Shown here: positions 8,786-60,806 of the stretch, in pieces | How the letters are laid out: the number at the start of each line of letters is the position of its first letter | Position numbering within the stretch: position 1 is the first letter of the stretch | DNA from: a bacterium | Lineage (GTDB): Bacteria; UBA8248 | Reading direction: 5' to 3' | Assembly: GCA_965203325.1 (NCBI GenBank) | Contig: OZ241875.1 | Span: 1,248,001-1,312,000 of the forward strand | DNA length: 64,000 bases | The notes under the pieces: model-generated | The model's input: only the letters and a program-made list of their open reading frames with translations | Databases searched by the model: none | Told to the model about the DNA's origin: nothing | Program-made: the position numbers and the translations under genes

Positions 8786-11209
8786 CTACCACCGCTTCGA
8801 GCCGCGCAGCAGTAGGCCGCCTTCTGGTCTCCCGCCGCCCGCCTGTTCGGTGAGCCTCGCCTCGAGGCTCACCTCCGTGGCCGCCCCGGGCTTCCAGCGC
8901 GCGCCCGCGCGCCAGGTCTCCGCGTTCCCCGAGACCGCAACGCCCGTATAGGGCGTCAGCAGACCGCGCGGGGCGTCCAGGCCCCAGGCCGCCTCGGCCT
9001 CGAAGCCAGCGGCGCCCGGCTCGAACCCACCGCCCGGCGAGAGGCCCGCCGCCTGCGACCAGAGCCGCTCCGCACCGCCGGCGGAGGCGCCCCACGAGGA
9101 GCCCGCCCGAAGCGTGAGGCCGCGTCCCCCGGAGCCCGGAGCGTACGCCACCGAGGCGCTCACGCCCCATTCCTCATAACCGCCCTCGCCGTGGGAGAGC
9201 AGGCCGCGCGCGCGCACCTGCGTCGTCAGGGCACCCGAGGTCCAGCGGACAGAGCCGCCGGCCTCCACCCCGCCGCCCGTCTCCGCGTCGCCCGAATCGT
9301 TCCGGAACCCTATCTCCAGCGAGGGCGTCAGCACCGCATCGCCGAACCTGAGCGAGCGCGAACCCTCCAGCACGAGGCGCACGCGGCTCGTCTCCGCCTC
9401 GGTCTCCGCCAGGCCCGCCGCAGCGTCCGAGCGCGTGTTCGTCACCAGGACGTCCGCGCGGAGCGCGAGCTCGAACCCGCCCGCCTCGCGCGCGGGCAGA
9501 ACGACCCCGCGCGCCCCGGCCGCCGCCATGCCCATTGCCACGTCGGCCTCCACCGGGGACGACCCCCCGGGCGTGAGCGTCATCTCCCCCTGCCCATGGC
9601 CCACCGCGCCCCAGAGCGAGAACGTCCCGCTCACACGGTAGCGCGCGTAGGGGTAGACACCCGTAAGCGTGCTCTCCACCTCGCCCGCGCAGCCCGCCTC
9701 GCACGCGCCGCCCGCCTTGTACGAGCCGTCGCCCGCGCTTCGCGAGAGCGCCACGCCCACCAGCCAGCGCGCCCGCTCGTAGTCGAAGCCCACGGTCGCC
9801 GTCGTCACGTCGCCCTCGAGCGAGAGATCGCCCTCGGCGCCCTCGAACGAGGAGCGCGCGCCCCGGCCCCAAAGCGACCAGCGCCCCCCCGGCGCGTCCC
9901 CGCCGCCGGCCGAGGCCATGTGAAACGAACTCGCGAGCAGGAGCTCGGACATCGCGACCTCGCGCACCGAAGGCGCCTGCGCCTCCTCACCGCGCCCGAG
10001 CCGGGCCTCCCTCTCCTTGAGGAGGGCCTCGGCGAGGCGCGACTCGATGGCCTCGCGCTCCGCCCCGCCCGTGAGGCTGTGGCCGCCCAGCACGACGCCC
10101 GCGGCGCCGCCGCCCGACAGGCGTCCTTCAATCGCCCCGGCGACGTGGCCCGCCGCCGCGCGCCCGAAGCGCGCGAGCCACATCCTTTGCAGCGGGTCGT
10201 CGTTGCGAATCACCCCCTTCGCCTGGCGGTGAATCCCCCGCAGATACGCACCCCGGGGGTTCGACAGCTTGAGCTTGAACGTCTCCTTGCCCTCGTCGAT
10301 GGCGTCGTCGAGCAGCGGCACCGAGACCGTCTTCGCCGTCTCGCCCGCCGCGAAGGTCAGCGTGCCCGACGTGGCCGTGTAGTCCTCACCCGCCGCCGCC
10401 GTGCCGTCCTCGGTCGCGTAGTCCACCGAGACCGTGTGCGCCGCCGCGCGGTTGAGCGTCACCGCGAAGTCCAGCGATGCGTCCCTGCCTTCCTTCGCCC
10501 GCGCGTCCTTGACCCGGATGCGCACCGGGCCGCCTATGGTCATACTCGACGTGTTCGTGAGCGTCCTTCCGTCGGCCGTGCACACCGCGCCCGCCGCGCC
10601 GCAGGCGCGCCCGCCCGCAAGCGTCACCGTCATGTCCTTCCACGACTTCGGCGCGACGCGCACCCGCCACAGGCCGGACGCCACCCTGCGCACGTCCTTG
10701 ACCCTGCCGCCCTGCACGGCGAAAGAGGCTGCAGCCGGGGCGCTCGCGGTCTCGCCCAGCGCCTCGCTGAAGCGCACCTCCAGCGCGAACGCCGCCTTGC
10801 CGTCATGCTCTTCCGGCGCTCCCTCGAACGCCGCCGTCAGCGGCTCCGACGCCTGCTGCTGCGCCACCTGCTGCCGCGCCGGCTCCGGCGCCGCCTCGCG
10901 CGTCACCGTCACCGTGTAGGTGCGCGTGTAGCGCGCGTCCGGCGCCGTCACCACCACCACGATGGTATTCTTCCCCACGGCCAGCGCCACCGGCGTCGAC
11001 GGGTCGCCGCCGTTCACCGTCACCCGCGCATTCGGGTTCTCGGGGCTCGCGTTCACCGTGACCTCGGTCACGTCGTGGGCCACCGTCGCGCTGTAGGTCT
11101 CGCGGTCCGGGTCGAACGCACCGTCCAGGCTCACCTGCCCGGCCCCGGCGCCCGTCGCCATGCACAACGCCGCCGACAGCAGCACCGCAATCCGTACCAT
11201 CTTCTTCAT
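8786..11209 (-). CDS. Autotransporter-like adhesin: signal peptide, cadherin-like beta-sandwich, Calx-beta, C-terminal beta-barrel
   Basis: AFDPDRETYSATV...VGKNTIVVVVTA...YTVTVTR. VDYATEDGTAAAGEDY...GTLTF...DDAIDEGKETF (Calx-beta). WSLWGRG..., amphipathic strands, terminal W. Confidence 0.8.
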   Translation of the reverse strand: MKKMVRIAVLLSAALCMATGAGAGQVSLDGAFDPDRETYSATVAHDVTEVTVNASPENPNARVTVNGGDPSTPVALAVGKNTIVVVVTAPDARYTRTYTVTVTREAAPEPARQQVAQQQASEPLTAAFEGAPEEHDGKAAFALEVRFSEALGETASAPAAASFAVQGGRVKDVRRVASGLWRVRVAPKSWKDMTVTLAGGRACGAAGAVCTADGRTLTNTSSMTIGGPVRIRVKDARAKEGRDASLDFAVTLNRAAAHTVSVDYATEDGTAAAGEDYTATSGTLTFAAGETAKTVSVPLLDDAIDEGKETFKLKLSNPRGAYLRGIHRQAKGVIRNDDPLQRMWLARFGRAAAGHVAGAIEGRLSGGGAAGVVLGGHSLTGGAEREAIESRLAEALLKEREARLGRGEEAQAPSVREVAMSELLLASSFHMASAGGGDAPGGRWSLWGRGARSSFEGAEGDLSLEGDVTTATVGFDYERARWLVGVALSRSAGDGSYKAGGACEAGCAGEVESTLTGVYPYARYRVSGTFSLWGAVGHGQGEMTLTPGGSSPVEADVAMGMAAAGARGVVLPAREAGGFELALRADVLVTNTRSDAAAGLAETEAETSRVRLVLEGSRSLRFGDAVLTPSLEIGFRNDSGDAETGGGVEAGGSVRWTSGALTTQVRARGLLSHGEGGYEEWGVSASVAYAPGSGGRGLTLRAGSSWGASAGGAERLWSQAAGLSPGGGFEPGAAGFEAEAAWGLDAPRGLLTPYTGVAVSGNAETWRAGARWKPGAATEVSLEARLTEQAGGGRPEGGLLLRGSKRW

Positions 11210-11223
11210 CGGACATGCCCCCC

Positions 11224-13983
11224 TTAATTGCCGGAATTCAAGTCAAGCGCCCGCAGGCGGGCGTTCGCCGCGTCGACGATCACGATCCCGACCGTGGACG
11301 GTGAGCCCGGCGCCACGCCCGGCGGCAGGTCCGGCTGGATCACCGCCACCTGGAAGCGCTCGTCGTCCGTGTCGTCGTCCTCGTGGGTCCTGATCGTGCA
11401 CGTCCCGCTCGTCGCGCCGGCGGCGATCGTGATGCTCCTGACGAACCCGTGGTCGGCCGTCTCCGACGTGACCCACCTCACCCTGAGCGGGATCTCCACG
11501 TCGTTCGCCAGCGGCTTCGTCAGGGCCACCTGCAACTCCACCGGCGAGCCCTCGGCCACCGTGCGGCGCACCGCCCGCAGCGTCACCTCCGGCAAGTCGG
11601 TGAGGTCCTTGATCCTCACCTGCACCGAGGCCGGGCGGCCCGCCCGCACCCCCGGCGGCAGGCTGGTTGTGTCCAGCGCCACCGTGAAGGTCTCGTCGTC
11701 GAGGTCGCTGTCCGGGTGCGTCGGGATATTGACGACGCCGCAGCTGGTCTGGAGCCAGCCGCTGATGGCGATGGTGTACGCCGTGCTGATCGGCAGGCGG
11801 CCGTCCGTGTCGCCCGACAGCGACACCCCCCAGTCGCCGTCCTCCGAGGTCCCGTGGCTCAGCGTCACCGGAATGCGCACGGTGCCCTGCGGCACCGCCG
11901 ACAGGCACGCCTCCACGCTCGCCGACGCGCCCTCGTTCACCGGGTTCGGGCTGACGGAGAGCTTCACCGTGGAGGAAGTGAGCGTCCCCAGGCTCACCGG
12001 CACGGATTGGCCGACGGTCCAGCTCGGGGGCGTTTCGCCCTGGTTGGAATAGGCCCAGCTCGCGATGACACCCTCGTAGCCCGGGCCCGTGGACAGAACG
12101 GCGTCTGCGATACGGAACCGGCTGTCGCCAACGTTCAGCACAAGGCCCCACTTGCGGTCCAGGGCCTTGTCCAGGTGGAAGAGGAGAAAGCCGCCGATGT
12201 TCGTGAGCCGGAGACCGAGGATCCTGTAATCGACCCCGCCGTAGGTGAAGTCGGCGTCAGAAAGCGCTCCAACAGTTGGTGCGGCTCGAAAGCCCTTCCA
12301 TTTTCCTCCGTCTCCTACCGTCATGGTGCCGGAGACGGCGGTCGTCACCTTCGCCGGGAGCGCCTGCCGCGTGACGGTGACGGTGTAGTCCTTGGTCGTC
12401 GTCGTGTCCTCGGCCGTCACCCGCACCGTGATCGCGTTCACGCCCACGCCGAGCGCGATCGCCGAACTCGCCGAGCCGCTCGTCACCGCCGTGAAATTGC
12501 CCGACGTCCCCTTGCGCACCCCCACCGTCGCCTTGCCGGTGTCGGCCACCGTGGGCGTCAGCTTCACATGCGTCCGGTCGTTCGCCACCGTCGCCGTGTA
12601 GGTCGTCGTCGACGCCCCGAAGGTGCCGATGCTGAAATCCGTGTATTGGCCGCCCGAACTCGTGGCGCTGCCCGCCGTCAGGCCGCTCAGGTCCGCGTTC
12701 GTGGACAGGGTCTGCACCGCCGCCCGCCGCGTGACGGTGACCGTGTAGTCCTTGGTCGTCGTCGTGTCTTCGGCCGTCACCCGCACCACGAGCGTGTTCG
12801 CGCCCACGTCGAGCGCGATCGCCGAACTCGCCGAGCCGCTCGTCACCGGCGTGAAACTGCCCTGGCCCTTGCGCACCCCCACCGACGCCTTGCCGGTGTC
12901 CGCCACCGTCGGCGTCAGCTTCACATGCGTCTGGTCGTTCGCCACCGACGCCGTGTAGGTCGTCGTCGTCGCCCCGAAGGTGCCGATGCTGAAATTCGTG
13001 TATTGGCCCCCCGAACTCGTGCTGCTGCCCGCAGTGAGCGCGCTCAGGTCCGCGTTCGTGGACAGGGTCGGCGTGCTGCCCTGCCCGCAGGAGCTCTGGA
13101 TGCTGAGGGAGACCTCGTCGCCGGCGGACCACGTCAGCCCGGTACTGCTCCAATTGATGGTCCCAGACGTAGCGCCCGACAGCGCAAGCGCGGTCGAGCC
13201 GACGCAGAAATTGAGGGCCCTATGCGTAGTAGTGAGACCCGAATTGAGCGTAAGACGTGAGTTGCCGCTGCTGAAGACCTGGATGCCAACGATGCTGCGA
13301 GTATTACCGTCACCCCCGGGAAAGTCATCGTCCGAGAGCGTGGCGGCGGTCGAGCACTTTTGTGCGGCAGCGGTAGCGGCATTCAAGCAACCGAATCCAA
13401 ACCCGGTTGGAAGCTGCTTCACCGTCAGCGTCGCCGACCAGACGGCCGTGCTGGAGGGCGCGCTGGGCGTCGCCGTCACGAAAGAGGTCCAGGCGCTTGC
13501 CGTATGCCCTGAGTGAGGTCTCGCCTGGACCCGAAACCGGTAGGTCGTGTTGTTCGTGAGGCCCGTGATGGTGACGGTTCTGTTTGCGGTGACGGCAACG
13601 TTCTGCGTCGACAAGGTGCCGCTCGGATGCTCTCCGTAGGCCACTGTGTAACCGCCACGATGATTGGTGATACCTGACCAGGTCAGCGTCACTTGCGCGT
13701 CTCCGGCCTGCGCCTGGAGATTCGTTGGCGTAGCAAGCGAGTGCGTGGCCTCGGCCGGCGCGGGGGCGAACAGGCCGAGCGCGCCGAGCAGCAGCGCGAG
13801 GACGGGGAGGAGGAGGGAGAGGCGGCGGGCGCGGGCGCGCCCGGTGCGGGCGTCAGGCCGTCCGGAGTCCACCGATGTCGGGGAAGCCGGTTCGCGCGCC
13901 CCGGCCGGGCGCACTTCACGCCGCCGGGCCGCGCTGCAGAACGCCGCCGCGAGCAGCATCGAAATCCGTGCAATGTTCTTCAT
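11224..13983 (-). CDS. Large secreted adhesin-like protein: FN3, two cadherin-like beta-sandwich repeats, Calx-beta-like domains, no barrel
   Basis: Start placed at MKNIARIS (13983) after a GGGGG RBS. PTNLQA.AGD.QVTLTW...GLTNNTTYRFRV (FN3). Two STNADLS.L...DYTVTVTR repeats. Confidence 0.8.
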   Translation of the reverse strand: MKNIARISMLLAAAFCSAARRREVRPAGAREPASPTSVDSGRPDARTGRARARRLSLLLPVLALLLGALGLFAPAPAEATHSLATPTNLQAQAGDAQVTLTWSGITNHRGGYTVAYGEHPSGTLSTQNVAVTANRTVTITGLTNNTTYRFRVQARPHSGHTASAWTSFVTATPSAPSSTAVWSATLTVKQLPTGFGFGCLNAATAAAQKCSTAATLSDDDFPGGDGNTRSIVGIQVFSSGNSRLTLNSGLTTTHRALNFCVGSTALALSGATSGTINWSSTGLTWSAGDEVSLSIQSSCGQGSTPTLSTNADLSALTAGSSTSSGGQYTNFSIGTFGATTTTYTASVANDQTHVKLTPTVADTGKASVGVRKGQGSFTPVTSGSASSAIALDVGANTLVVRVTAEDTTTTKDYTVTVTRRAAVQTLSTNADLSGLTAGSATSSGGQYTDFSIGTFGASTTTYTATVANDRTHVKLTPTVADTGKATVGVRKGTSGNFTAVTSGSASSAIALGVGVNAITVRVTAEDTTTTKDYTVTVTRQALPAKVTTAVSGTMTVGDGGKWKGFRAAPTVGALSDADFTYGGVDYRILGLRLTNIGGFLLFHLDKALDRKWGLVLNVGDSRFRIADAVLSTGPGYEGVIASWAYSNQGETPPSWTVGQSVPVSLGTLTSSTVKLSVSPNPVNEGASASVEACLSAVPQGTVRIPVTLSHGTSEDGDWGVSLSGDTDGRLPISTAYTIAISGWLQTSCGVVNIPTHPDSDLDDETFTVALDTTSLPPGVRAGRPASVQVRIKDLTDLPEVTLRAVRRTVAEGSPVELQVALTKPLANDVEIPLRVRWVTSETADHGFVRSITIAAGATSGTCTIRTHEDDDTDDERFQVAVIQPDLPPGVAPGSPSTVGIVIVDAANARLRALDLNSGN
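12366..13070 (-). repeat. Intragenic tandem duplication (about 357-360 bp period) encoding two cadherin-like domains
   Basis: GTGACGGTGA at 12371 and 12731, with near-identical sequence throughout. Confidence 0.9.
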
Positions 13984-14088
13984 TTGGAATGCCCCCTGTT
14001 CCGTGATTTCGGGTTCAAGCTGACGCAACCGGTCTTTCCGCGAGAGGCGGATTCCTGCGGTATGCGCCGCCTCGAACCCGGGCTGGTG

Positions 14089-14110
14089 TCCGCTAATTGC
14101 CGTTATTGGC
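14089..14110. other. Lox-like recombination site A-left
   Basis: TCCGCTAA-TTGCCG-TTATTGGC. Spacer is the reverse complement of the A-right spacer. Confidence 0.75.
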
Positions 14111-14281
14111 CCCCAGAAGCCCCGTTTTCCACCGAAAAACCCGTTTCGGGGGGCATTCGGGCCGCAAATGAGCGAAAAATGAGCGAAAAAAGGCGCGAAA
14201 CGGCGCCCGAAACCCCTCCGGGGACCCCGGAATTGCGCTTGACATGGCCGTGAGAGGTGTTTAACTTTCCGATAACGGCAA
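14097..14281. promoter_or_regulatory. Putative 185-bp invertible promoter segment (locus A)
   Basis: Flanked by inverted sites. TTGACA 14239-14244, 17 bp, TAACTT 14262-14267, pointing away from the adhesin. Homologous to 60428-60612. Confidence 0.75.
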
Positions 14282-14289
14282 TTATCGGA
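14268..14289. other. Lox-like recombination site A-right
   Basis: TCCGATAA-CGGCAA-TTATCGGA: perfect 8-bp inverted arms around a 6-bp asymmetric spacer. Confidence 0.8.
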
Positions 14290-14443
14290 CTCCAGAAACC
14301 CGCCGTTTCGCCGGTATCCCCCTGCGAAACGGCTTTTTTTATTGGAAATCCCCCGTCGTCGTCCATACTTGGTAATCAAGGAGGCGCTTGAGTGGCCTCA
14401 AGCAATGGACACGGCCGCCGACCCGGAAGGTTGGCTTCTCGGC

Positions 14444-14606
14444 ATGACGACGGGGGCAAGACCATCCGACCCGACGCTCAGGGGATTCGAGCGTTGGGGC
14501 AACCCCGAGACCGACGCCGGGATAGCGGCGTAACTGGGGGAACTCTACGAGGGGGGGACACTCGGCGGCCGTGGCCGCGATGGCGAGGCTTCGCTACGGG
14601 CAGTGA
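14444..14606 (+). pseudogene. Internally deleted relic of the Cre-like recombinase at 60807-61730
   Basis: Keeps MTT start, LR.FER.G.PETDAG.AA(Y to stop)LG.LYEGG and terminal ARLRYG.*. The catalytic domain is missing. Confidence 0.85.
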
Positions 14607-14649
14607 GGTCCGCCGCGTGCAGGACGCCCGTCTTCTCCCGAATATCTCT

Positions 14650-15369
14650 CTACCGCCTCTTCTTTCTCCGGGCGGCTCTCTCCTCGGACGTGGAAGTCCA
14701 CCTCCGCGCGGAGGCCCACTTCTCGAGGTCTTCGAGCAGGTAGCGCACCCGGTATCCGATGCGAAGAAAATCCGGCCCCTCGCCGCTCACGCGGTAGCGC
14801 TCCAGCGTCTTGGGCGAGAGGCCGAGCCAGGCGGCCGCCTCCCGCGTGTTCAGGTGGTTCTCCTCCGCGCGCTCATCGACGTCTCCCGCGGCCCCGGGTT
14901 CCCCGGCGGCGTCCCACGTCCCGTCGAACGGATCGGGCAAGTCCGCGAGCCTCCCGCGTATGGCGCGGACCTCCTCTCGGGTCGCGTTGGCCGCCATCCA
15001 GGCGCGCACCCGGTCGAAGGTCTTGAGATACGGCGAGGCGCCCCGGCGCAGCCTTCCCACGAAAGAGGGGTTCCCCACGGTCTCCTCGCCCAGGATCGAG
15101 ACCTTGGTCCCGCTCACCGCGAGAAACGCCTCGACCTCGGCCCGCAGGAGCGGTCCCAGGGGCGGATACCCCATGAACGCGAGCACCCGGTCCGCCGTGT
15201 CGACCCGCAGGGGCCGCCCCCGGGCGTGCAGTCCCACGAAGCCGGGAATCCCCAGCGCGCCCACCCCGAAGCGCCTCGCGCTCATCCCGCGGCGCGCGCG
15301 CCAGAGCGCAATGCTCCGGCGCAGCCGCTCGTCCAGCGGGGCGCCGGTATCGTCGTCGAACGCGGTCAT
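14650..15369 (-). CDS. DNA-binding protein: two Cro-like HTH repeats plus C-terminal excisionase/AlpA-like HTH
   Basis: MSARRFG...T.DRV.AFM and ...GNPSFV.RLRRG.SP...T.DRVRAWM repeats. LNTREAAAWLGLSPKTLERYR..GEGPDF.RIG.RVRY..EDL..W. Confidence 0.75.
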   Translation of the reverse strand: MTAFDDDTGAPLDERLRRSIALWRARRGMSARRFGVGALGIPGFVGLHARGRPLRVDTADRVLAFMGYPPLGPLLRAEVEAFLAVSGTKVSILGEETVGNPSFVGRLRRGASPYLKTFDRVRAWMAANATREEVRAIRGRLADLPDPFDGTWDAAGEPGAAGDVDERAEENHLNTREAAAWLGLSPKTLERYRVSGEGPDFLRIGYRVRYLLEDLEKWASARRWTSTSEERAARRKKRR

Positions 15370-16169
15370 GGCGCGCGAACATAAGGAAAGGACGAGCGCC
15401 CGTTCAATCGTTGTCTCTAGCGCGGAAGGTACACCCGGGAAGAGTCCGCGACCGCTCCCGAGAGCGGGTCGCTCATCGGTTCAGCCTGAAATCACGGGGG
15501 TTTTCCGGAAAACGAGGGTCGCCGGAGAACGTGCGGCGAGGCGCTGCGGAAAAAAAGGAAGGACACCGCCCCCCGGGCGAGAGCTCGAAAGCCTCTTTCG
15601 TTCACGCCGCAGTGGGCTGTTTCGCGAGTCGTCCCTGCGAATGACCGGCGATTGGCGGCGCCCGGCGAGTTGCATCTCGACCGGAGAAGCCCCTGCCGCG
15701 GCAAGGCGCTGCGCGCTGCCCGTCCGCAGGTCGAAACGGCGCCGATTCCCTTGTTTCATTCGTTTTTATCGCATCGTATGCTGATGTTCCGGGTCGTCCG
15801 CCAAATACAATACGGCCAAGCCGAAATAGGCGGACATTCCTTCGTGGATTGTATGCCAACGGCCCGGATTCTGGAGGAAATAAAAAATATTCGGCCGGGC
15901 AGGCGGGGCGCAGCAATGCCTCCGCCTACCCGGCCTGCCACCCCGGTAATCATTCTCTCATGGGGTGATGAGCATCAAAAATTCGCCGACCCGAATCGGA
16001 TACGCCGTGCCATACGAACAACTGCCTCTGAGCCTTGTGGTATTATCACCCTGCCAACGAACGATTACCCGCTCTTCGACGACTCGCGCCCCCTGGGATG
16101 CTTTGGGGTTGTAATGAGTCCGCTTGCGTTTTGATTACATTTATTTCAAGGAATTTATAACTGGCTTAA

Positions 16170-16433
16170 AAACAATAATTTAATTTTCATATTCTGGATA
16201 ATACGATAAATTCACGGGGTTTTTCGATAAATTCCTGAAAAATGATGGTCAGATAAAGCATTGTAATAAAAAGGGTTATCATATAAATCTGAGCGTATCG
16301 CACTCAGATTCAGCGGCAAAAAAAGTTTTTCGGCTCCCGCGCATTTGCGCGCAATTGCCCGCATTCGGGCGCGGCCGCCTGGGGGAGTTCGGCCCGGAGC
16401 GGACGCGCCATGAGGCCGCGCACGGCGTCCCTG
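16170..16433 (+). repeat. Dispersed AT-rich repeat copy 1 plus duplicated gpsA 3' end
   Basis: Matches 48941-49113 (direct) and about 56660-56850 (inverted). Confidence 0.85.
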
Positions 16434-16888
16434 CCGGGCCGGTTGGATTGCTGTTCCTCATCGACCCAGCTGCCGGTGCCCATAATCCCGACCGACATCG
16501 CGGCCGGTCGGGAACGCGAACGGACGAGCGGAGGCGTTTAAGCGCAAAGACGAACTCTTCGCCCTGTTGCCCAAGGGCGGAATCGCGCTCCCGGGTTCGG
16601 GCATCACCGACAACTTCTTCGACGAAAGCAATCGAAGCGAAAGCGGTTTCATTAAATCTCCTGCGCATTCCAGCGCGTATTTTTCTTCAAAGTCTGGTTC
16701 CTGGCGGCTTGCCCCCACGAGGTTTTCCACGACGGTCTTTGAAATGGCCGGAACACACCACACCTTGCTCTATGACCTGCAACAAATCGACCCATTCCCA
16801 GGGGCGCAAATGGCTACACGCGTGGGTCGTGCGTATTCTCTCCGCGCTCTGCTTATGTTTCTATGCTCTCCTTTCTACTGAAAATCGC

Positions 16889-17800
16889 TTAGCGTTTGCC
16901 CCATTTTTTCTTCTCCACGGTCTCTTCTTCAATCTCGTAGAAACTCTCGAGGCCGATCAGGTTCTCAATCTCCTGGCGGGCGGCCGTGAAATCCTCATGC
17001 GTCATGCCCGTGTAATCGCCCGTCTTGCGCACTTCCTGCAAAGCTTTTTTCATGAAATGGTAACTGACGGTGAGATACAAAATGGCGTCGATACAGGCGA
17101 CGTAGCCCATCTCCGCCATCTGGCTCTCCGAGTAGAGCGGCCTCCCGTCCCTGTTGCCCCGGCTCTGGACGTACACCAGTGGAATCCTGGACTTTTGGGG
17201 AGCGGCGATGGCTTCCTTGTGGTTCCGGGGAAATACGAGGCCCATATCCGCGCCCACGTCCGCCGCCATGTTCACGCGCCTGACCGCCTCGCCGACCCCC
17301 CGGAAGCGCGCCGTATCAGAGCGCGCGATGATGACGAAATCCTTGTCCGTCTCGTCTCGCTGGCGGCACGCCATCCTGATCTTGTCGACGAATTCCTTCG
17401 CCGGAATCGCGTGCGCAACGTATTTATGGTAGTGCGCGCGCTTGGGGTAGAGCTGATCCTCGATGTGGATTCCCGCGATGCCTGCGCGAATGAACTCCCG
17501 CACGGCGCGCATGGTGTGCATCGGCTCGCCGAAGCCCGCGCCTCCGTCGGCGAGCGTGGGTATTTTCACCGCGTTCGCCACGTCACCGGCCACGTCCACC
17601 TGCTCGCGCATCGTCACCATCGGCTCGGTGATGCAGCGCGAACCACCCGTCACGAAACCGCCCGTATAGGTCGCCTTGAAGCCGAGGCTCTCAACGAGCC
17701 TGCCACCGATGGGGTCGTAGGCGACGGGCATGAAGATGAATTTTCCCCTTTTCAGCAGGGCGCGGAACCTGGTGGTATTGCGGCGAATGGCCATTTGCAT
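16889..17800 (-). CDS. Isocitrate lyase/PEP mutase superfamily protein
   Basis: AYD..GGR..E..GF, ADGGAGFG, GIHIEDQ, IIARSD. Confidence 0.85.
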   Translation of the reverse strand: MQMAIRRNTTRFRALLKRGKFIFMPVAYDPIGGRLVESLGFKATYTGGFVTGGSRCITEPMVTMREQVDVAGDVANAVKIPTLADGGAGFGEPMHTMRAVREFIRAGIAGIHIEDQLYPKRAHYHKYVAHAIPAKEFVDKIRMACRQRDETDKDFVIIARSDTARFRGVGEAVRRVNMAADVGADMGLVFPRNHKEAIAAPQKSRIPLVYVQSRGNRDGRPLYSESQMAEMGYVACIDAILYLTVSYHFMKKALQEVRKTGDYTGMTHEDFTAARQEIENLIGLESFYEIEEETVEKKKWGKR

Positions 17801-17856
17801 CTCCTATCGAGCGAAATATGAACCTCCTGGGTTTTCCTGTCCTTTGTTTTTTCGAT

Positions 17857-19239
17857 TTATGCCGTTCGGGTTTCCAGGGAAGCCACGAGTTCCCTGAACC
17901 GAGAGAGGTCGGGCTGCTCCTCGATACACATCACGAAATCGATGACCGCATCCTGCCTCTCCGGTCCGAGCACGGACGCCGTGAGGTCGCGGAATTTCTC
18001 GACGACCGCCTCCCCAGTGGGCCTGTTCTCCGGGTCGCCCCGACAGTAGTCGACGCGCTCGTGGATCCGCTCGCCATTTTTCAGGTGGAACGTCACGTCG
18101 CACGGTTTTTTCTCATGGTAGATGGCCGTGAGTTCGGGATCGGCCTCCACCCGGGTGGCTTTGGCGAACCGAACGAGTTCGGGGTCGTAAAGGGATTCAC
18201 CCTCGAGGTCAGAGGGCGAAACCCTGCCGCGCCTCAGCGCAACCGCCATGGCGTAACCCATGTGAAAGATCATCTTGGCGGGAGGGCCCGGCTCGTAATC
18301 CCAGCCGCACTGAATCTGCGTTATCTCACCGGCCCGAATCGAGATGCGCTCTACGTCTTCGAGCCTCACGCCGTGCTTTTCGCGGGCCAGCAGCGCGGCG
18401 TCGATGCCCGTCTGGCTGCTGTGGCATGTCGGATAGAGTTTGATGGAGGTGTCCATGAGCCAGTACTTCTCGCCCAGACCATCTGTGAGAATCTCCGGCT
18501 TGGGTTTCTTCGTGGTCATGGAGAAAAAACCGCCATCAGGCGCTTCCAGGGGATTGGCTGAGCCCCGAAAGCCTCCCTCGGCCAATAGTGCGGAAACGAC
18601 CCCGTTTCTCGCGGCCGTTCCCGCTGCGAGGTAAAGCTCCATGCCCGAGCCTTGCGTAAAGGAAAAATTGCCCGAAGCCTGCCCCGCCGCCGCTGAGATG
18701 GCGTGGTGCAGGGTTTCGGGCGAGTGGCCCATGGCGCGCGATGCGGCCGCAGCCGCCCCGAAGGAGCCGCAAGTTCCCGTGGCGCGCCATCCCTTCAGGC
18801 GATGCTCGGCCATGTTGACCGCCATCCCCAAGCGTGCCGCCGCTTCATACCCCGCTGATATCGCCTCAAGAAACGTCTTGCCGTCTGATCCCTTAAGCTC
18901 GCAGGCTGCCAGGGCCGCCGGAATCACGGCCACGCCGGGATGAAGCTTTGATTTGCGATGCAAGTCATCAAAGATAAGGACGTGGGAGAGGACGCCGTTG
19001 GTGAGAGCGGCTGTGGCCGGGTCGGCCCCGAATCCCCGGCCGATAATGGTGCAAGGTCCGCTCCTCGAAGCTGCTCCTGCGGCGCACAGTGGAACACCCG
19101 CCTCCTCGGTTCCCAGCGCCCCCAACGCACAGCCAAAATGATCCAGAAGGCAGAGCTTCAGGAAATCGGGAACACCCTTCGGCAAGCTCTCGAGGCGCAG
19201 CCCCGACATGAACCCGGCAAGTTGTTTCGAGCGATTCAT
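17857..19239 (-). CDS. MmgE/PrpD family protein
   Basis: LLDHFGCALG, SH.L.FDD.H...HPG, GW..TGTCG, IKLYPTC, GDPENR. Confidence 0.9.
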   Translation of the reverse strand: MNRSKQLAGFMSGLRLESLPKGVPDFLKLCLLDHFGCALGALGTEEAGVPLCAAGAASRSGPCTIIGRGFGADPATAALTNGVLSHVLIFDDLHRKSKLHPGVAVIPAALAACELKGSDGKTFLEAISAGYEAAARLGMAVNMAEHRLKGWRATGTCGSFGAAAAASRAMGHSPETLHHAISAAAGQASGNFSFTQGSGMELYLAAGTAARNGVVSALLAEGGFRGSANPLEAPDGGFFSMTTKKPKPEILTDGLGEKYWLMDTSIKLYPTCHSSQTGIDAALLAREKHGVRLEDVERISIRAGEITQIQCGWDYEPGPPAKMIFHMGYAMAVALRRGRVSPSDLEGESLYDPELVRFAKATRVEADPELTAIYHEKKPCDVTFHLKNGERIHERVDYCRGDPENRPTGEAVVEKFRDLTASVLGPERQDAVIDFVMCIEEQPDLSRFRELVASLETRTA

Positions 19240-19322
19240 CGTACTCCCAGGGCGCGATGAAAAAGCGCCGCCGCGCCCCCCACCAGGCGGACGCGGCGCG
19301 CCGTTTCATCCAGCAGGTGAAA

Positions 19323-20366
19323 TTAGTTGCCGGTCAGGATCTTGAGCGAGTCCTTGGTCCATTTATCCCGCATCTGATCCATCTCATTCGGGTCCCACCA
19401 GTGGTATTTGAAGTCGGAGAGTTTCGCGCCCTCTACGCTGGTGAAGTCTTTGCGCAGAGAGAACTTGCCCTTGTCGGAAACCACTTTCTGGCCTTCGAGA
19501 CTCGAGAGCCAATCGATCAGCACCTTCGCACCTGCGGGGTTGGGACCGCCCTTCGTGATCGCCATGGGAGCGACGAGCAGCGCGCCGCCTTCTTTGGGGA
19601 ACACTTCTTTAATCGGTGCGCCCTTGCCGCCCGGGTAGGGGCCATCGCGGCGAACGAGCATGGAGAGGTTCACGCCGAAGTGGCGCTCGCCTGATTTTAC
19701 CTTGTTGTTCGTGGTGCCGTGGCTGCGCACCATCATCGCGCCGTTGTCGCGCGTTTTGATGAACCAATCGCGCCCGAAAAGCTTGTACATCGTGAACACG
19801 AAGTAGTAGTGGCCGCCGCCGATTTTCGGATCGCCGAAGCTGATCTTGTTTTTCCATTTGGGCTTGTGGAAGTCGAGCCAGCTGTTCGGGATGTCGCCGC
19901 CCTTCACGAGTTCGGGGTTGTAGGAAATGTATTGCAGCCAGGAGGTGTGATAGAAGTAGCCGCAGTCCTTCGCCACGGCCCAGTCACGGTAGTCCTTGTA
20001 ATTCGGGCTGCAGTGACGGGTGAGCTGGTTTTTTCTATTGAAGCTCAGGAACATCCCCGGGTCGGCGGTGGAGATGACGTCCATGCGGACCTTCCCGGCT
20101 CTCAGCTCCTGCTTGTAGAGATTGGCGATTTTGCCGGACTGGCTCCGGATCATCTTCGCCTTGATACCGTACTTGCTGAATGCCTTGTTGAACGCCTTGT
20201 TCAGCTTCCGCTGGGCGGGCTTGAAGATGATGTTGTACACGATCACCTGCCCGCCCTTGGTGTCGGCCGCCATCTTGAGCGTTTCCTTGTCGGCGCCATG
20301 CGCGCCGCTCGCCACGAGGCCCATCGACAGCCCCAGGCATATGACGGGGATTATCCACTTCTTCAT
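19323..20366 (-). CDS. ABC transporter substrate-binding protein (Fe3+/thiamine/polyamine cluster)
   Basis: Signal peptide, AAGGAGG RBS, YNPELV...P.SW.D...PKWK.KI, PNPAGAK.LIDW.LS.EGQ. Confidence 0.85.
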   Translation of the reverse strand: MKKWIIPVICLGLSMGLVASGAHGADKETLKMAADTKGGQVIVYNIIFKPAQRKLNKAFNKAFSKYGIKAKMIRSQSGKIANLYKQELRAGKVRMDVISTADPGMFLSFNRKNQLTRHCSPNYKDYRDWAVAKDCGYFYHTSWLQYISYNPELVKGGDIPNSWLDFHKPKWKNKISFGDPKIGGGHYYFVFTMYKLFGRDWFIKTRDNGAMMVRSHGTTNNKVKSGERHFGVNLSMLVRRDGPYPGGKGAPIKEVFPKEGGALLVAPMAITKGGPNPAGAKVLIDWLSSLEGQKVVSDKGKFSLRKDFTSVEGAKLSDFKYHWWDPNEMDQMRDKWTKDSLKILTGN

Positions 20367-20396
20367 CTTGCACCTCCTTTGAGATTGAGAAAACAA

Positions 20397-21479
20397 CTAC
20401 GATTCCACGACAACGCATCGCTCCGGCTCGGCGGAGACGAGCACTTCCTGACCCGTTTCGAACATCTGCGTCGGTTCCGCATGTATCTCGAGCGCTTTTC
20501 CGGAAACTTCCACCGAAAAAATGGTCGACTCTCCCAGGAAAGTCGAATGAGCCACTTTGCCCTTCCATTGATTCGGGCGCTCGGCACCATCCTGGGGCGT
20601 GGACAACTCGAGCGCCTCGGGACGAATCGAGACGTATACCTTATCCTCATCGGGCATCACCTGCGCGCCGACGGCGATCTCGATTCCCTCATCCGAAAGA
20701 ACGAGCGCCTCGCCTCCCGCCCCCGCTTTCTTCGCACCCTCAAAGAGATTCGTGGTTCCCATGAAACTGGCGACGAAGCGGTTCTGCGGGCGATTGTAGA
20801 TTTCGCGCGGGTCGGCGATCTGCTGCAAGACCCCGTGATCCATGATGGCGATGCGGTCCGAGAGCGCCATGGCTTCGGTTTGATCGTGCGTGACGTAGAC
20901 GGCCGTGAAATTGAGCCTTTCTTGCAACTCCCGAATTTCGAGCCGCATCTGCACGCGCAGATTCGCGTCGAGGTTGCTCAGAGGTTCGTCGAACAAGAGC
21001 AGGGAAGGCTCTGAAACCAGACTACGCGCAAGGGCGACGCGCTGCTGCTGTCCGCCGCTTATCTGTGTGGAGTAGCGGTGCTCCATGCCGTCGAGTTGAA
21101 CGAGTTTGAGCGCGTTCATAACTTTTCCGGAAATTTCCCCACGCGGCATGCCACGCGCCCGGAGCGGATAGGCGACGTTCTCGAACAGCGTCATATGCGG
21201 CCAGATGGCGTAGGATTGAAACACCATGCCGATCGCGCGCTTCTCTGGCAGAACGAATACGCCGCCGTCGATATCGGTGACGACCGTCTCGCCGATGGTG
21301 ATACGCCCGTCGGTCGGTCTCTCGAGGCCCGCGAGGCATCTGAGCGTCGTGGTCTTCCCGCACCCGCTCGGGCCGAGCAGCGTGAGCATCTCCCCTTCTT
21401 CGACTTCCAGGTCGAGGACGTCCACCGCGCGCACTTCGTCGAAGTGTTTCGATAGATTCTCAATGGTCAGCGACGGCAA
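20397..21479 (-). CDS. ABC transporter ATP-binding protein (PotA/FbpC type, TOBE domain)
   Basis: GPSGCGKTT, ISGGQQQRVALAR, LLFDEPLSNLD, VTHDQ. Confidence 0.95.
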   Translation of the reverse strand: MPSLTIENLSKHFDEVRAVDVLDLEVEEGEMLTLLGPSGCGKTTTLRCLAGLERPTDGRITIGETVVTDIDGGVFVLPEKRAIGMVFQSYAIWPHMTLFENVAYPLRARGMPRGEISGKVMNALKLVQLDGMEHRYSTQISGGQQQRVALARSLVSEPSLLLFDEPLSNLDANLRVQMRLEIRELQERLNFTAVYVTHDQTEAMALSDRIAIMDHGVLQQIADPREIYNRPQNRFVASFMGTTNLFEGAKKAGAGGEALVLSDEGIEIAVGAQVMPDEDKVYVSIRPEALELSTPQDGAERPNQWKGKVAHSTFLGESTIFSVEVSGKALEIHAEPTQMFETGQEVLVSAEPERCVVVES

Positions 21480-21494
21480 CTAGCTTTTCCTCCA

Positions 21495-23225
21495 CTATCG
21501 GTAGACGGGGGTCACATCCACCTTGAAAACCCACTTGAACACAGAAATGACGACGAACATGATCGCCGTCAGAAGCAATGCGCCGGTACACATGATGTTC
21601 AACTCACCATCCGTCCACTGCTCGAAGATCAGAACGGGCAGAACGCGCGTTTCATGCGTGGTCAGAAGAACCGCCGTGGATATTTCGCGCAGGAATATGA
21701 TGAACAGCAATATCCAGGTGGAATAAATGCCCGGGCGCAACAAGGGGAAAATAATTCTCCGGAAGGTGAGGAACCAGCTCCCGCCGTGAACCCGGCTGCT
21801 TTCTTCGAGTTCTCCATGGACCTGCACCACGTTCGCCCCCAGGGCGCGGACGCCGTAGGGCATAAACAGGGTGAGGTATGCGACGACGAGAATCCAGATG
21901 GTCGCCCAGATTGGCCACTGGATATACGCCCATATCATCCCCAGACCCATGACGATTCCGGGAATTCCCACCGGCATGACGCTCACCTGCTCGAGAACAC
22001 CGCGGCCGGGCGTTTTGCTCTTGTGGATAATGTAGGCGATGACGGCCGTCATCAGCACGCTGATGGTCGCCCCGCCGGTGGAGAGATACATCGAGCGGAT
22101 GAAGGAATCGAGCAAATCGGGATTCGTGAAAAAGACCTCCCAGTTCTCAAGCGTCCACAACCCGAACTTGGGTGTGGCGTAAGGCTGCATGCTGACCTTG
22201 ATAAGTACCAGCCCGGGCAGGATGACGGCGAGCAGTGCGTAGAGCGCCGTGAACAAATAGGCAAAAGGCGTGAGGCGCCCGAGAGAATAGAGTTTGAGGC
22301 GGAAACCGCGTCCGCTTACCAGGGCGTATGAGCCTTTTCTGAGTATCCAACGCTGCAGGAGAATGCAGACTGCGGTAATGGCCATCAGGGTGAGGGCGGC
22401 GACGGTCGCCTCCCCGTAGAGTGGCGGGGCGAAGACCGATTTCGCAAAGATGTCCGTCGCCAATACCACGATGCGCGCCGGGAATCCCAAAATCGCCGCC
22501 ACACCGAAGATGCCCATCGTAATGACGAAGACGAGCGTCATGCCCGATAGAATGGCGGGAAGGATGACCGGAAACGTCACCCGCGTGAGGGTGCGGAACA
22601 ACCCCGCGCCCGACATGAACGAAGCCTCCTCATACGTCGTATCCACCGAGCGGAGCGCCGCCGAGGTGAACAGGTACATATAAGGGGCCATGTAGATACC
22701 CGAAACCCAGATGATCCCCCAGACGGAATAGACGTTGATGGGAAGCCCTGTCCAGAGCTTGATCATACCGTTGGTGGGGTTGCCCAGAAGAATCCAGGCG
22801 AGCGCGCCGACGAATGTGCTCGTGAAAAAAGGAAGTATGGCGGAGAGCTCCACCCAGCGCTTCCCGCGCATGTCTGTCTTCACGACCAGCCAGGCCAGTG
22901 GCGATCCGATGATCGTCGCCAGGAAGACCACGCCGAAGCCGACCAGCAGGGTTCTGCCCACTGTGCGCCAGTAGCCCGGATTGCCGAAAACGACGCGGAA
23001 ATGCTCGAGCGTCCACACGCCCCCCTCGCCCGGGGGCTCGGATTGAAACGCGCCGTAGAACAGATTGAGGACGGGCGCGAGAACAAACCAGAGAACTAAC
23101 AAGGTCATCACCACGACCGTGACGACCTCGAAGGGCGTAACGCCGGCTGCGCGTAACCTCCTGAGCGGCGCGCGGAAATAACGCTCGAACGCCCCTCCTG
23201 GATTCTGAACGACTGTTCCGGCCAT
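21495..23225 (-). CDS. ABC transporter permease (FbpB-like, two TM domains)
   Basis: Multiple TM helices with two EAA-like motifs (YEEASFMSGA; LEESSRVHGG). Confidence 0.9.
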   Translation of the reverse strand: MAGTVVQNPGGAFERYFRAPLRRLRAAGVTPFEVVTVVVMTLLVLWFVLAPVLNLFYGAFQSEPPGEGGVWTLEHFRVVFGNPGYWRTVGRTLLVGFGVVFLATIIGSPLAWLVVKTDMRGKRWVELSAILPFFTSTFVGALAWILLGNPTNGMIKLWTGLPINVYSVWGIIWVSGIYMAPYMYLFTSAALRSVDTTYEEASFMSGAGLFRTLTRVTFPVILPAILSGMTLVFVITMGIFGVAAILGFPARIVVLATDIFAKSVFAPPLYGEATVAALTLMAITAVCILLQRWILRKGSYALVSGRGFRLKLYSLGRLTPFAYLFTALYALLAVILPGLVLIKVSMQPYATPKFGLWTLENWEVFFTNPDLLDSFIRSMYLSTGGATISVLMTAVIAYIIHKSKTPGRGVLEQVSVMPVGIPGIVMGLGMIWAYIQWPIWATIWILVVAYLTLFMPYGVRALGANVVQVHGELEESSRVHGGSWFLTFRRIIFPLLRPGIYSTWILLFIIFLREISTAVLLTTHETRVLPVLIFEQWTDGELNIMCTGALLLTAIMFVVISVFKWVFKVDVTPVYR

Positions 23226-48865: not shown

Positions 48866-48940
48866 TAAGGTTTTCAGTGGTGGTTCGCAGGATAGGGTTG
48901 CCATTCAGTATATTCATGAAATTTATTTTCCGTTTAACTG

Positions 48941-49058
48941 ATTGTAATACAAAAGGTTACCATATAAACTTGAGCATCGCGCACTCAGATTCAGCGGCAA
49001 AAAAAATTTCCGGCTCCCCCGCATTTGCGCGCAATTGCCCGCATTTGCGAGCGGCCGC
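48941..49058 (+). repeat. Dispersed AT-rich repeat copy 2 (downstream of gpsA)
   Basis: Direct match to 16260-16378. Confidence 0.85.
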
Positions 49059-50078
49059 CTAGGGGAGTTCGGCTCGGAGCGGACGCGCCATGAGGTCGCG
49101 CACGGCGTCCCTGGGACTCCTGCCCTCGAACAGCACGGCGTGCACCTCGCGGCATATGGGCATCTCCACGCCGTACTCATCCGCGAGCCCCACGGCCGCC
49201 GGCGCGGTGGATACGCCCTCAGCCACCGCCGTCATGGATTCGAGTATCTTCTGCAGGGGCTCTCCCGCCCCCAGCCGCACGCCGACCGTCCTGTTCCGGC
49301 TCAGGTCGCCCGTGCACGTGAGCACCAGATCGCCCATGCCCGCCAGACCCGCGAAGGTCTCCGCCCGGCCGCCCATCGCGGCGCCCAGGCGGGCGATTTC
49401 GGCCAGCCCGCGCACGATGAGCGCCGCCCGCGCGTTGAGGCCGAGTTCCATGCCGTCCGCGACCCCCGCCGCCAGGGCGATGACGTTCTTGAGCGCGCCG
49501 CCGAGCTGGGCGCCGACCGGGTCTTCGCCCGTGTATATCCTGAAACTAGGCGCCGAGAGGGTTTCTTGAATCGCTTTCGCGGCGCCGGAATCGCCCGACG
49601 CCGCCGTGACGGCCGTGGGTTTTCTCTCCGCGAGTTCGCGGGCGAACGTCGGCCCCGAGAGACAGGCAAGGGCGCGTCCGGCGCCGCCCGCCTCGGCGAC
49701 GCACCCGGAGATAACCTGGGTCGGCAGGAGCAGCGTTTTCTCTTCCACGCCCTTCGTGGCGCTCGCGACGAGCGTTTCCTCGTGAACCGAAGGCGCGAGC
49801 TTCGTCCATACCGCCCGGACGACGTGGCTCGGCATCACGCTCACGAGGACGTCCTGGCCCGCCGAGGCGGCTTCGGCCAGATCGGGCGTGAAGCGCAGAT
49901 TCTCATGCAGGGCGACGCCGGGCAGGTACAAGTCGTTTTCACGGTGGGCGGCCATGCGGGCGCAAAGGTCGGCCTCGAACACCCAGAGCATCACCTCGTG
50001 GCCGGTTTCAGAGAACAAATCCGCCAGCGCCGTCCCCCAGGCGCCGGCGCCGATCACGGCGATTCGCTGCGGCGTCAT
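49059..50078 (-). CDS. gpsA: NAD(P)H-dependent glycerol-3-phosphate dehydrogenase
   Basis: IGAGAWGTALA, EN..YLPG, TKG.E, LSGPTFA, GGALKNVIA, GLAG.GDL..TC....SRN. Confidence 0.95.
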   Translation of the reverse strand: MTPQRIAVIGAGAWGTALADLFSETGHEVMLWVFEADLCARMAAHRENDLYLPGVALHENLRFTPDLAEAASAGQDVLVSVMPSHVVRAVWTKLAPSVHEETLVASATKGVEEKTLLLPTQVISGCVAEAGGAGRALACLSGPTFARELAERKPTAVTAASGDSGAAKAIQETLSAPSFRIYTGEDPVGAQLGGALKNVIALAAGVADGMELGLNARAALIVRGLAEIARLGAAMGGRAETFAGLAGMGDLVLTCTGDLSRNRTVGVRLGAGEPLQKILESMTAVAEGVSTAPAAVGLADEYGVEMPICREVHAVLFEGRSPRDAVRDLMARPLRAELP

Positions 50079-56452: not shown

Positions 56453-56659
56453 GCGGTTCCAACTCCTCATGGCGCCACACCCCGGAGCGGCGCGCCCGAA
56501 AGAGGGATGACGTTCCCTATCGACGGTCGTTCGCGCCTGCGCCCCCGGCGCATACCCGGAGCGAGTGCGCAACTGCGGGCGCTTGCGGGCAAATGCGGGG
56601 GTCAAAGCCGATGGATGAATGAGGCTTTGCCGGCGTGATGCGGTGCGGGAGGAAATGCA

Positions 56660-56850
56660 GGCGCTTGCGCGCAAATGCGGGGTTTCCAAAAAAACTTTTT
56701 TTTGCGCCATATCTGAGTGCGGGACGCTCAGGTTTCTATGGTAACTCCTTTTATTACAATCACTTGCATAGTCAGAAATTTTCAGGAATTTATCGAAAAA
56801 CCCCGTGAATTTATCGTATTTTACAGGAAATATCATTATTTTTATTTTCA
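56660..56850 (-). repeat. Dispersed AT-rich repeat copy 3 (inverted)
   Basis: Reverse complement matches about 16170-16355, including two CGATAAATTC boxes and the CTGAG...CTCAG hairpin. Confidence 0.8.
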
Positions 56851-60185: not shown

Positions 60186-60419
60186 TTAGTGAGTCCTCCT
60201 GAATACACAGTAGAAAAAGGGATTTTCCGTGAATTTCCGGCTTTCTCCGATTAACCTCCTTTCGTGAGCTTTTTTTTCGGGCCTTCACAAACTGGTGATT
60301 CGTATTTAGGGCCGCCTGGAATACGGCGGACTTGAACCCTTTCATGCTCCGGGCCGGTCGTGAGTCGTTCCGGGAGAGGCGGATTCCTTCGGTATGCGTC
60401 CCCCTTCCCCGGCCTGGGC

Positions 60420-60441
60420 GCCGGTAATTGATGTTATCGGC
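60420..60441. other. Lox-like recombination site B-left
   Basis: GCCGGTAA-TTGATG-TTATCGGC. Confidence 0.8.
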
Positions 60442-60612
60442 CCCCAGAAGCCCCGTTTTCCGCCGAAAAACCCGTTTCGGGGCGCATTCGGGCCGTATAT
60501 GAACGAAAAATAAGCGAAAAAAGGCGCAAAACGGCGCCCGAAACCCCTCCGGGGACCCCGGAATTGCGCTTGACATGGCCGTGAGAGGTGTTATATCTTC
60601 TGATAACATCAA
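60428..60612. promoter_or_regulatory. Putative 185-bp invertible promoter segment (locus B)
   Basis: 14-bp perfect IR TAATTGATGTTATC / GATAACATCAATTA. TTGACA 60570-60575 with AT-rich -10-like TTATATCTT, pointing at the recombinase. Confidence 0.78.
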
Positions 60613-60620
60613 TTATCGGA
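60599..60620. other. Lox-like recombination site B-right
   Basis: TCTGATAA-CATCAA-TTATCGGA. Spacer is the reverse complement of the B-left spacer. Confidence 0.8.
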
Positions 60621-60806
60621 CTCCAGAATACCCACTGCCTCGCCAGGAACTCCGCCTGCATTCGCTTGGAGGAACAGCTTTTTTTCTTGGAAATACGCCG
60701 TCGTCGTTTAAACTCCCCAATCGACGAGGCCCTTGAGCGAAACGAGGCGCTCGAACGGCTTTATGAATTGGAAACGGCCGCCGACCCGGAAGGTTCGCTT
60801 CTCTCC

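Follow-up and report, generated by a model that had tools for sequence, protein, structure and literature searches.

A probable orphan member of a sixteen-copy family of invertible promoter cassettes with matched crossover spacers in an uncultured bacterium

Results

Organization of switch A and its neighboring genes

The window analyzed here is a 64,000-nucleotide stretch of a bacterial genome assembled as a single contig (4.39 Mb, 60.4% G+C). It contained two homologous segments, switch A and switch B, each located beside a large open reading frame (Table 1). Loci elsewhere in the genome are named by their position in kilobases, A being 1262k and B 1308k. Each site of a switch had by itself a palindromic 7-6-7 layout of arm, spacer, and arm, and one site of a switch was the inverted copy of the other. 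In the repeats bounding switch A, 18 of 20 positions were complementary. From spacer to spacer, the span was 185 bp in both A (14097-14281) and B (60428-60612). The spacers, sites, and 185-bp register given for A and B in the preliminary description were exact on direct reading. Alignment of the two loci with blastn (14032-14457 versus 60364-60820) gave 81% identity over 459 aligned columns (E ~1e-91), so the homology extended past the inverted repeats into both flanks.

Table 1. Features of the switch A and switch B loci, with positions in the window.
Feature	Position	Strand	Remarks
Second operon gene at A, 807 aa	8786-11209	-	Pfam: Calx-beta 9e-21, Cadherin-like 9.4e-20
First regulated gene at A, fn3/Cadherin-like surface protein, 919 aa	11224-13983	-	Pfam: Cadherin-like 2.4e-25, fn3 9.8e-9
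5' leader, left site to adhesin start	13984-14089	-	14032-14089 conserved with locus B (blastn)
Switch A	14090-14288	+	81% identical relative of switch B
Left recombination site, switch A	14090-14109	+	CCGCTAA-TTGCCG-TTATTGG; spacer 14097-14102
Invertible core, switch A	14110-14268	+	159 bp
Terminator-like hairpin within core of A	14191-14208	opposite	Behind the promoter; hairpin scan
-35 element of switch A, TTGACA	14239-14244	+	Faces right site; weak -10 (TTAACT/TAACTT) next to it
Right recombination site, switch A	14269-14288	+	CCGATAA-CGGCAA-TTATCGG; spacer 14276-14281, reverse complement of TTGCCG
Intrinsic-terminator-like hairpin plus T7	14302-14340	+	Just outside right site of A
N-terminal recombinase remnant at A	14459-14557	+	Aligns to residues 34-66 of B enzyme, 67% (tblastn); in-frame stop
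HTH_17 (excisionase-type helix-turn-helix) gene, 239 aa	14650-15369	-	PF12728 6.1e-8
C-terminal recombinase remnant at A, inverted	15640-15729	-	Aligns to residues 255-284 of B enzyme, 67% (tblastn)
Gene controlled by switch B, 754 aa	57921-60185	-	Without Pfam family
Switch B	60421-60619	+	Homologue of switch A
Left site, switch B	60421-60440	+	Spacer TTGATG
Predicted promoter, switch B	60570-60599	+	TTGACA-18-TATCTT; consensus score 10/12
Right site, switch B	60600-60619	+	Spacer CATCAA
Cre-like tyrosine recombinase of locus B, intact, 307 aa	60807-61730	+	PF00589 2.5e-17

The first regulated gene at A began with an ATG at 13983 and ran away from the left site. Pfam domains in the two operon reading frames were limited to fn3, Cadherin-like, and Calx-beta, and no autotransporter domain was found in either (11224-13983 and 8786-11209), even at E<=1. 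The switch had previously been placed upstream of an adhesin plus autotransporter operon; an fn3/cadherin adhesin operon does lie beside it, whereas the autotransporter could not be recognized. Moreover, the operon lies to the left of the switch on the minus strand, and the promoter of the switch now faces away from it. Inside the adhesin gene (window 12361-13069) we noted a tandem pair of ~350-bp copies, 91% identical, which are probably duplicated Cadherin-like domains.

In the core, the TTGACA is followed at a distance of ~16-18 nt by a -10-like hexamer that faces the right site. A sigma-70 promoter scan gave no match in switch A because its -10 element is the weak TTAACT/TAACTT, with the -35 TTGACA present. 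Folding of the leader between the left site and the adhesin gene gave -44.7 kcal/mol (z -2.15), and the structure just outside the right site, a 10-bp hairpin followed by T7, gave -24.6 kcal/mol (z -3.66). Since the promoter is directed away from the adhesin gene and into this terminator, we read switch A as OFF in the assembly. An Rfam search of 13000-17000 returned nothing above threshold; the single sub-threshold match was to sRNA-Xcc1 at 15788-15876 on the plus strand (28.8 bits versus a gathering score of 53, E 0.044).

At switch B, a stable hairpin before the T-run was absent outside the right site (window 60617-60690; z +1.19), unlike in most copies. In its present orientation the B promoter may therefore read into the adjoining recombinase gene, which would place the enzyme under orientation-dependent control.

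The switch belongs to a family of sixteen copies in which inversion occurs

The 159-bp core was found in 16 copies in the genome, with 91-100% identity. Sites were scanned genome-wide by requiring TAA-N6-TTA exactly and allowing up to 2 mismatches in the other 8 arm positions. This yielded 33 sites, of which 32 were both ends of the 16 switches and one was located elsewhere; the reversed genome, serving as the null, gave one. The preliminary description had proposed to scan relatives as well; a search there by core homology added 26 distinct elements to the 16 switches found here. At all 16 loci, a large open reading frame (316-1822 aa) was positioned beyond the left site and directed away from the switch. 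Fn3, Cadherin-like, or Calx-beta domains were detected in nine of these reading frames, including that of A, and seven had no Pfam family. The strong right-flank hairpin was present at 11 of the 16 loci and a T-run at 15.

In three of the 16 copies, with cores starting at 2078047, 2672555, and 3869533, the core had the opposite orientation with respect to both conserved flanks. The outer arms in these copies were kept by the flanks (left CCGCTAA or CCGTTAA, right CCGATAA) and the inner arms followed the core, which places the exchange within TAA-N6-TTAT. An element of a related genome (L039 in G012) was likewise inverted relative to its flanks. The family inverts in nature, since both orientations were found among its copies, and this holds at the level of the family, not for locus A itself. 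The earlier proposal that these are functional recombination sites was thus borne out by the inverted copies and by the position of their exchange point. The three inverted loci of this genome would be ON.

No strand-changing joint at locus A was found in Logan contigs from four of the 24 public runs listed; contigs of this length (60-260 nt) are silent on flipping. Variant letters in the public-run contigs, such as C>A at 14100, were considered and set aside, as they fit cross-mapping from paralogous switches. Two exact window stretches, one spanning the left flank plus arm and one the promoter region, were used to scan metagenomes, and neither had a match.

Spacers at the two ends of a switch change together

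The elements used to examine the spacers (16 from this genome and 26 from relatives) were gathered by core homology alone, and so were not selected for matching sites. Three loci of relatives with partial core matches (L046, L057, and L084), in which no site pair was found, were excluded from the counts. The spacers at both ends matched in 41 of the 42 elements, distributed over 20 spacer classes, and the TAA-N6-TTA frame was invariant in all 42. In a second set, composed of modules with an intact neighboring recombinase, all 25 pairs were matched across 15 classes. The closest relative of switch B, located in G012 and 90% identical over switch plus recombinase, carried TTGCTG at both ends versus the TTGATG of B. 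Covariation of the spacers is real and, on the sequences compared here, has arisen many times independently. It shows the 6 bp to be the likely exchange region and the switches to have been active. By itself, covariation is no demonstration of selection for spacers that differ.

The sole exception was the orphan switch at 3371k (genome 3371546; L035/L061), with TTGCCG on the left versus TTGCCA on the right. This switch may have been caught between mutation and conversion, or may be locked. Copies with non-complementary spacers had been named in the preliminary description as evidence against its reading, and this one copy was found beside the 41 matched ones.

In the explanation that we consider likely, switch A is one of the orphans in this 16-copy family of invertible promoter cassettes, carried by an uncultured and apparently sponge-associated bacterium; the cassettes are inverted by recombinase, and their spacers are kept equal by co-conversion. 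In each cassette, a sigma-70-type promoter backed by a terminator-like hairpin would occupy one end of the 159-bp core, and the core would be bordered by two inverted lox-like sites in which 7-bp arms surround an asymmetric 6-bp spacer. Promoter activity of the core is predicted from its motifs. A Cre-like tyrosine recombinase would pair both sites, cut at the edges of the 6-bp spacers, and invert the core. In the ON orientation, the promoter would read into the large surface-protein gene; in the OFF orientation, it would read into the hairpin plus T7 terminator. Six of the 16 switches have the recombinase encoded beside them, and it would serve the remaining ones in trans.

Tyrosine recombinases exchange one strand pair at each spacer edge, so the product sites would be heteroduplex across the spacer. 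The 6-bp spacer would be the strand-exchange region, whose two copies must be identical for the exchange to finish. After inversion, one continuous chromosomal strand would have, at both product sites, the spacer derived from one and the same parental site; replication would then yield one daughter with two old spacers and another with two new ones. A mutation in a single spacer copy would be either lost, or spread to both ends by one rare mismatch exchange plus replication, so that the ends match while the loci drift apart. The spacer pairs of A and B had been interpreted as compensatory change. The covariation itself stands, but tracing the strands through an inversion suggests that one mutation and one exchange followed by replication would be enough, and that two compensatory mutations would be unneeded.

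Spacer sharing and substitution rates

The 16 loci of this genome (G000) carried eight spacer classes, and the 16 loci of G012 carried 13. TTGACG was present at four loci (705k, 2078k, 3869k, and 4230k), TTGCCG at three (A, 1029k, and 1996k), TTGATG at two, one of them B, and TTGCTG also at two; TTACTG, TTGTCG, TTGCCA, and TTGCTA occurred at one locus each, and the remaining locus was the mismatched 3371k. Identical spacers were shared by 11 of 105 locus pairs in G000 (15 matched loci), 3 of 120 pairs in G012, and 10 of 240 pairs between G000 and G012. Among the 105 pairs of G000, spacers differed by one base in 45, by two in 36, and by three in 13. These numbers did not agree with the earlier view that spacers are specific to their locus, as the TTGCCG of A itself is reused at 1029k and 1996k.

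A rival reading, that of the preliminary description, is that spacer diversity is adaptive, with locus-specific orthogonal spacers allowing independent flipping and preventing deletion or inversion between loci. We regard this as possible, though rather less than even in probability. In its favor, 94 of 105 locus pairs differ in this genome and 117 of 120 in G012, and the same idea has been proposed for the RecV switches (PMC12282940). Against it, the classes are reused at several loci, 45 of the 105 pairs are a single base apart, and no within-genome avoidance of shared spacers was visible, sharing inside G000 (11/105) being not below that between G000 and G012 (10/240). There are also six recombinase paralogs rather than one.

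Substitution rates bear on the same question. Parsimony on a tree built from the 42 cores assigned 12, 17, 7, and 9 steps to spacer positions 3-6, which places them with the quickest columns of the element; core columns averaged 2.07 steps, with a maximum of 14. Ten cross-validated splits agreed, 0-4% of the held-out core columns being as fast as spacer positions 3, 4, and 6, and the per-site divergence of the spacer was ~3.5 times that of the core. On the recombinase tree, the six spacer positions took 2, 3, 8, 8, 5, and 6 steps (average 5.3) versus a mean of 2.72 at 87 four-fold degenerate sites, one of which reached 8. These excesses would favor adaptive spacers, but neighboring non-coding columns on the same recombinase tree were equally fast (means of 5.5 steps in the left flank, 4.5 in the core, and 3.4 in the right flank), with 9.8% of the other non-coding columns reaching at least 8 steps. 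The excess over core columns and four-fold sites was therefore removed by the non-coding control. The four central spacer positions appear to behave like unconstrained DNA, though each change needs fixing at two places. Such rates would fit efficient co-conversion; diversifying selection is allowed by them, not demonstrated. Positive selection in which both ends of a switch are driven to a new 6-bp spacer after each duplication, insulating the new copy from its parent, is likewise possible, though less than even in probability.

Tyrosine recombinases such as Cre, FLP, and lambda Int need spacer homology between partner sites. The spacers of A and B differ at two positions, so recombination between A and B should be hindered, and exchange between them is expected to be poor. 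Across the genome, spacer differences would be an obstacle to recombination for the majority of switch pairs, though not for every pair. Insulation between loci would be partial at best, and it may have been selected or may be a mere by-product.

Most switches, including A, lack an intact recombinase

The closest solved structure to the B enzyme was Cre (E 1.4e-14, residues 45-302). The catalytic Arg, His-x-x-Arg, Trp, and Tyr motifs of the two aligned, with LLRVSE, GHSLRVG, GRW, and GRY in the B enzyme corresponding to LLRIAE, GHSARVG, GGW, and NY in Cre. NCBIfam Xer and invertase models all scored well under their cut-offs against the B enzyme. Full-length recombinase paralogs were located beside six switches (705k, 1308k or B, 1412k, 1827k, 2078k, and 2585k). 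Seven loci, A among them, had recombinase fragments only, and three (1713k, 2672k, and 2765k) had no detectable trace of a recombinase, so that 10 of the 16 switches were orphans. The B enzyme was the outlier of the six, with 80-81% amino-acid identity to the other five, which were 90-97% identical among themselves. It had been suggested that one recombinase flips several switches; six intact paralogs adjoining their own switches, together with ten orphans, do not support this. The picture in this genome is not that of a single enzyme running an orthogonal code specific to each locus.

The reading frame at 14392-15384 was considered as a second recombinase at locus A and rejected, as it had neither similarity to the B enzyme nor a Pfam family; the true remnants are the short fragments listed in Table 1. 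Since A retains only such fragments, its flipping would depend on action in trans, and not necessarily by the B enzyme.

The remnants at A had an unusual layout, shared with 1029k, 1996k, and 4230k, in which an N-terminal recombinase fragment is followed by the HTH_17 gene and an inverted C-terminal fragment. Locus 2585k combined an intact recombinase with an inverted C-terminal fragment of the identical type. Taken together, these layouts suggest that a second, convergent recombinase gene was once present, and that the broken module was then duplicated with its adhesin operon.

The HTH_17 gene was present beside switches in ten full-length copies with 93-100% amino-acid identity, even where the recombinase had decayed. 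Its HTH_17 domain is C-terminal, and the gene is convergent to the recombinase gene. Possibly the protein serves the switch as an accessory or directionality factor. One further copy, the eleventh (82% identity), was noted at ~2383k, away from any switch.

The state of the recombinase raises the alternative that switch A is a dead relic, with its recombinase lost, its -10 degraded, and the adhesin operon permanently off or driven otherwise. Consistent with this, the recombinase at A is reduced to two fragments, one with a stop, the promoter scan had no match, and flipping at the locus was not seen in the short public contigs or in four relatives, which had no syntenic counterpart. We nevertheless find a relic improbable. 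The spacers of A are perfectly matched and its arms are those of 705k, which has an intact recombinase. Its -10 variant (TGTTTAACTTTCC) is also found at 705k and at 2078k, the latter inverted towards its gene and accompanied by an intact recombinase. Five mutually similar recombinase paralogs are available in trans, and the HTH_17 gene beside A is intact. Furthermore, the orphans 2672k and 3869k, which have no intact recombinase, are two of the three inverted copies, and this suggests that orphans are flippable now, or were so before their recombinase was lost.

Distribution of the family and flexibility of its genomic position

Among other genomes of the same genus, 12 of 22 contained core DNA, as did one of seven from a neighboring family. 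Relatives of the recombinase at 73-88% identity came from metagenome-assembled genomes titled Nitrospinota bacterium or just "bacterium", and those farther away (42-60%, one at 69%) from genomes titled Latescibacterota, Poribacteria, Binatia, Acidobacteriota, and others. The best-matching public runs were sponge metagenomes or coded organisms.

Between A and B, the backbone (window 16200-56830) was collinear with G012 at 95-97% identity, with 97% over 16200-23000. The A module was absent from the syntenic place in the four relatives searched (G012, G007, G010, and G016), and the B module was absent from the corresponding place in G012. With the backbone collinear, the absence of both modules from these places in G012 indicates that they belong to the flexible part of the genome.

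Occupation of variable regions, along with 16 copies bearing terminal inverted repeats, could also describe a miniature transposable element whose repeats are transposon ends rather than crossover sites, but this is highly improbable. Similarity among copies extends past the repeats, by ~60 bp on the left and by at least ~170 bp on the right. Every repeat also forms a 7-6-7 palindrome of its own, cores have been turned around in place with flanks unchanged, and the linked enzyme is a Cre-like recombinase and not a transposase.

A separate repeat of ~170 bp, matched 23 times by blastn in the genome and many times in relatives, was observed at 16190-16440, 48939-49113, and 56653-56820. It marks the exact start (16200) and end (56830) of the synteny with G012. 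With the repeat at both edges of synteny, the A and B modules are bordered by oppositely oriented copies of it.

Discussion

Invertible promoters flipped by tyrosine recombinases are well known. In fimS of E. coli and in the invertible promoters of Bacteroides, an adjacent tyrosine recombinase flips a promoter segment between inverted repeats and thereby controls a surface structure. The switches described here are similar to both in having a short segment with a predicted promoter, inverted repeats, a tyrosine recombinase, and a putative role in surface-structure control. The fimS switch with FimB/FimE is a single locus with 9-bp repeats that needs IHF and Lrp, whereas the present family is multi-copy and has lox-like palindromic sites, a built-in terminator-like hairpin, and an accompanying HTH_17 gene.

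The sites also resemble those of Cre/loxP, in which inverted arms surround an asymmetric spacer and spacer identity is required between partner sites, and Cre is the closest solved relative of the recombinase. The loxP site of phage P1 is 13-8-13 and serves plasmid dimer resolution and circularisation. In contrast, the present sites are 7-6-7 and would serve promoter inversion, and the sequence identity of the enzyme to Cre is low. Heterospecific lox sets are man-made, while the spacer variants found here are natural.

The nearest parallel is the RecV system of C. difficile (PMC12282940, Cell Rep 2025). As described in that paper, RecV acts on six switches, and each site places a 6-bp spacer between two binding motifs. 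Both ends of a switch have the identical spacer, as an inverted repeat, which is unique to that switch, and a "spacer code" model proposes that this blocks recombination between the ends of different switches. The idea of one spacer per switch is already in print as a model. Both systems combine a tyrosine recombinase with several switches and with 6-bp spacers that match within a switch and differ between switches. They differ in that RecV is one recombinase serving six unrelated switches, each with its own spacer, whereas here 16 homologous switches have arisen by duplication, with six recombinase paralogs and ten orphans, and one spacer is common to up to four loci. The binding arms also appear much shorter here, with 7 bp conserved versus ~13 bp for RecV. 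Our literature searches on a "spacer code" with recombinases found nothing beyond PMC12282940, and those on invertons or recombinase phase variation in sponge symbionts found nothing relevant.

As both the switch type and the spacer idea are already known, what is added here is a matter of degree. Mirrored spacer changes, dozens of them and independent of one another, provide comparative-genomic support for the rule that the 6-bp crossover region must match at both ends of one switch but need not match that of another switch. Until now, this rule has been argued chiefly from engineered lox/FRT sites and the RecV model. The family could control 16 surface-protein loci, which would be relevant to surface variation of such symbionts. 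Natural spacer variants of a short-site Cre-like enzyme are also candidate orthogonal recombination sites. If spacer diversification were selected, the genus would hold no fewer than 20 natural lox-like sites, all heterospecific to one another, with a few near-identical Cre-like enzymes, and this library would permit independent combinatorial control of the 16 surface-protein loci, with orthogonal sites ready for use.

Related arrangements were noted in more distant bacteria. In three Latescibacteria genomes (L114, L117, and L118), inverted repeats of another kind (TTTCCGATAAATCCAC-like) were located ~280 bp apart, upstream of recombinases 51-55% identical to the B enzyme. Judging from such sequences, the switch architecture seems to extend to other phyla with different sites.
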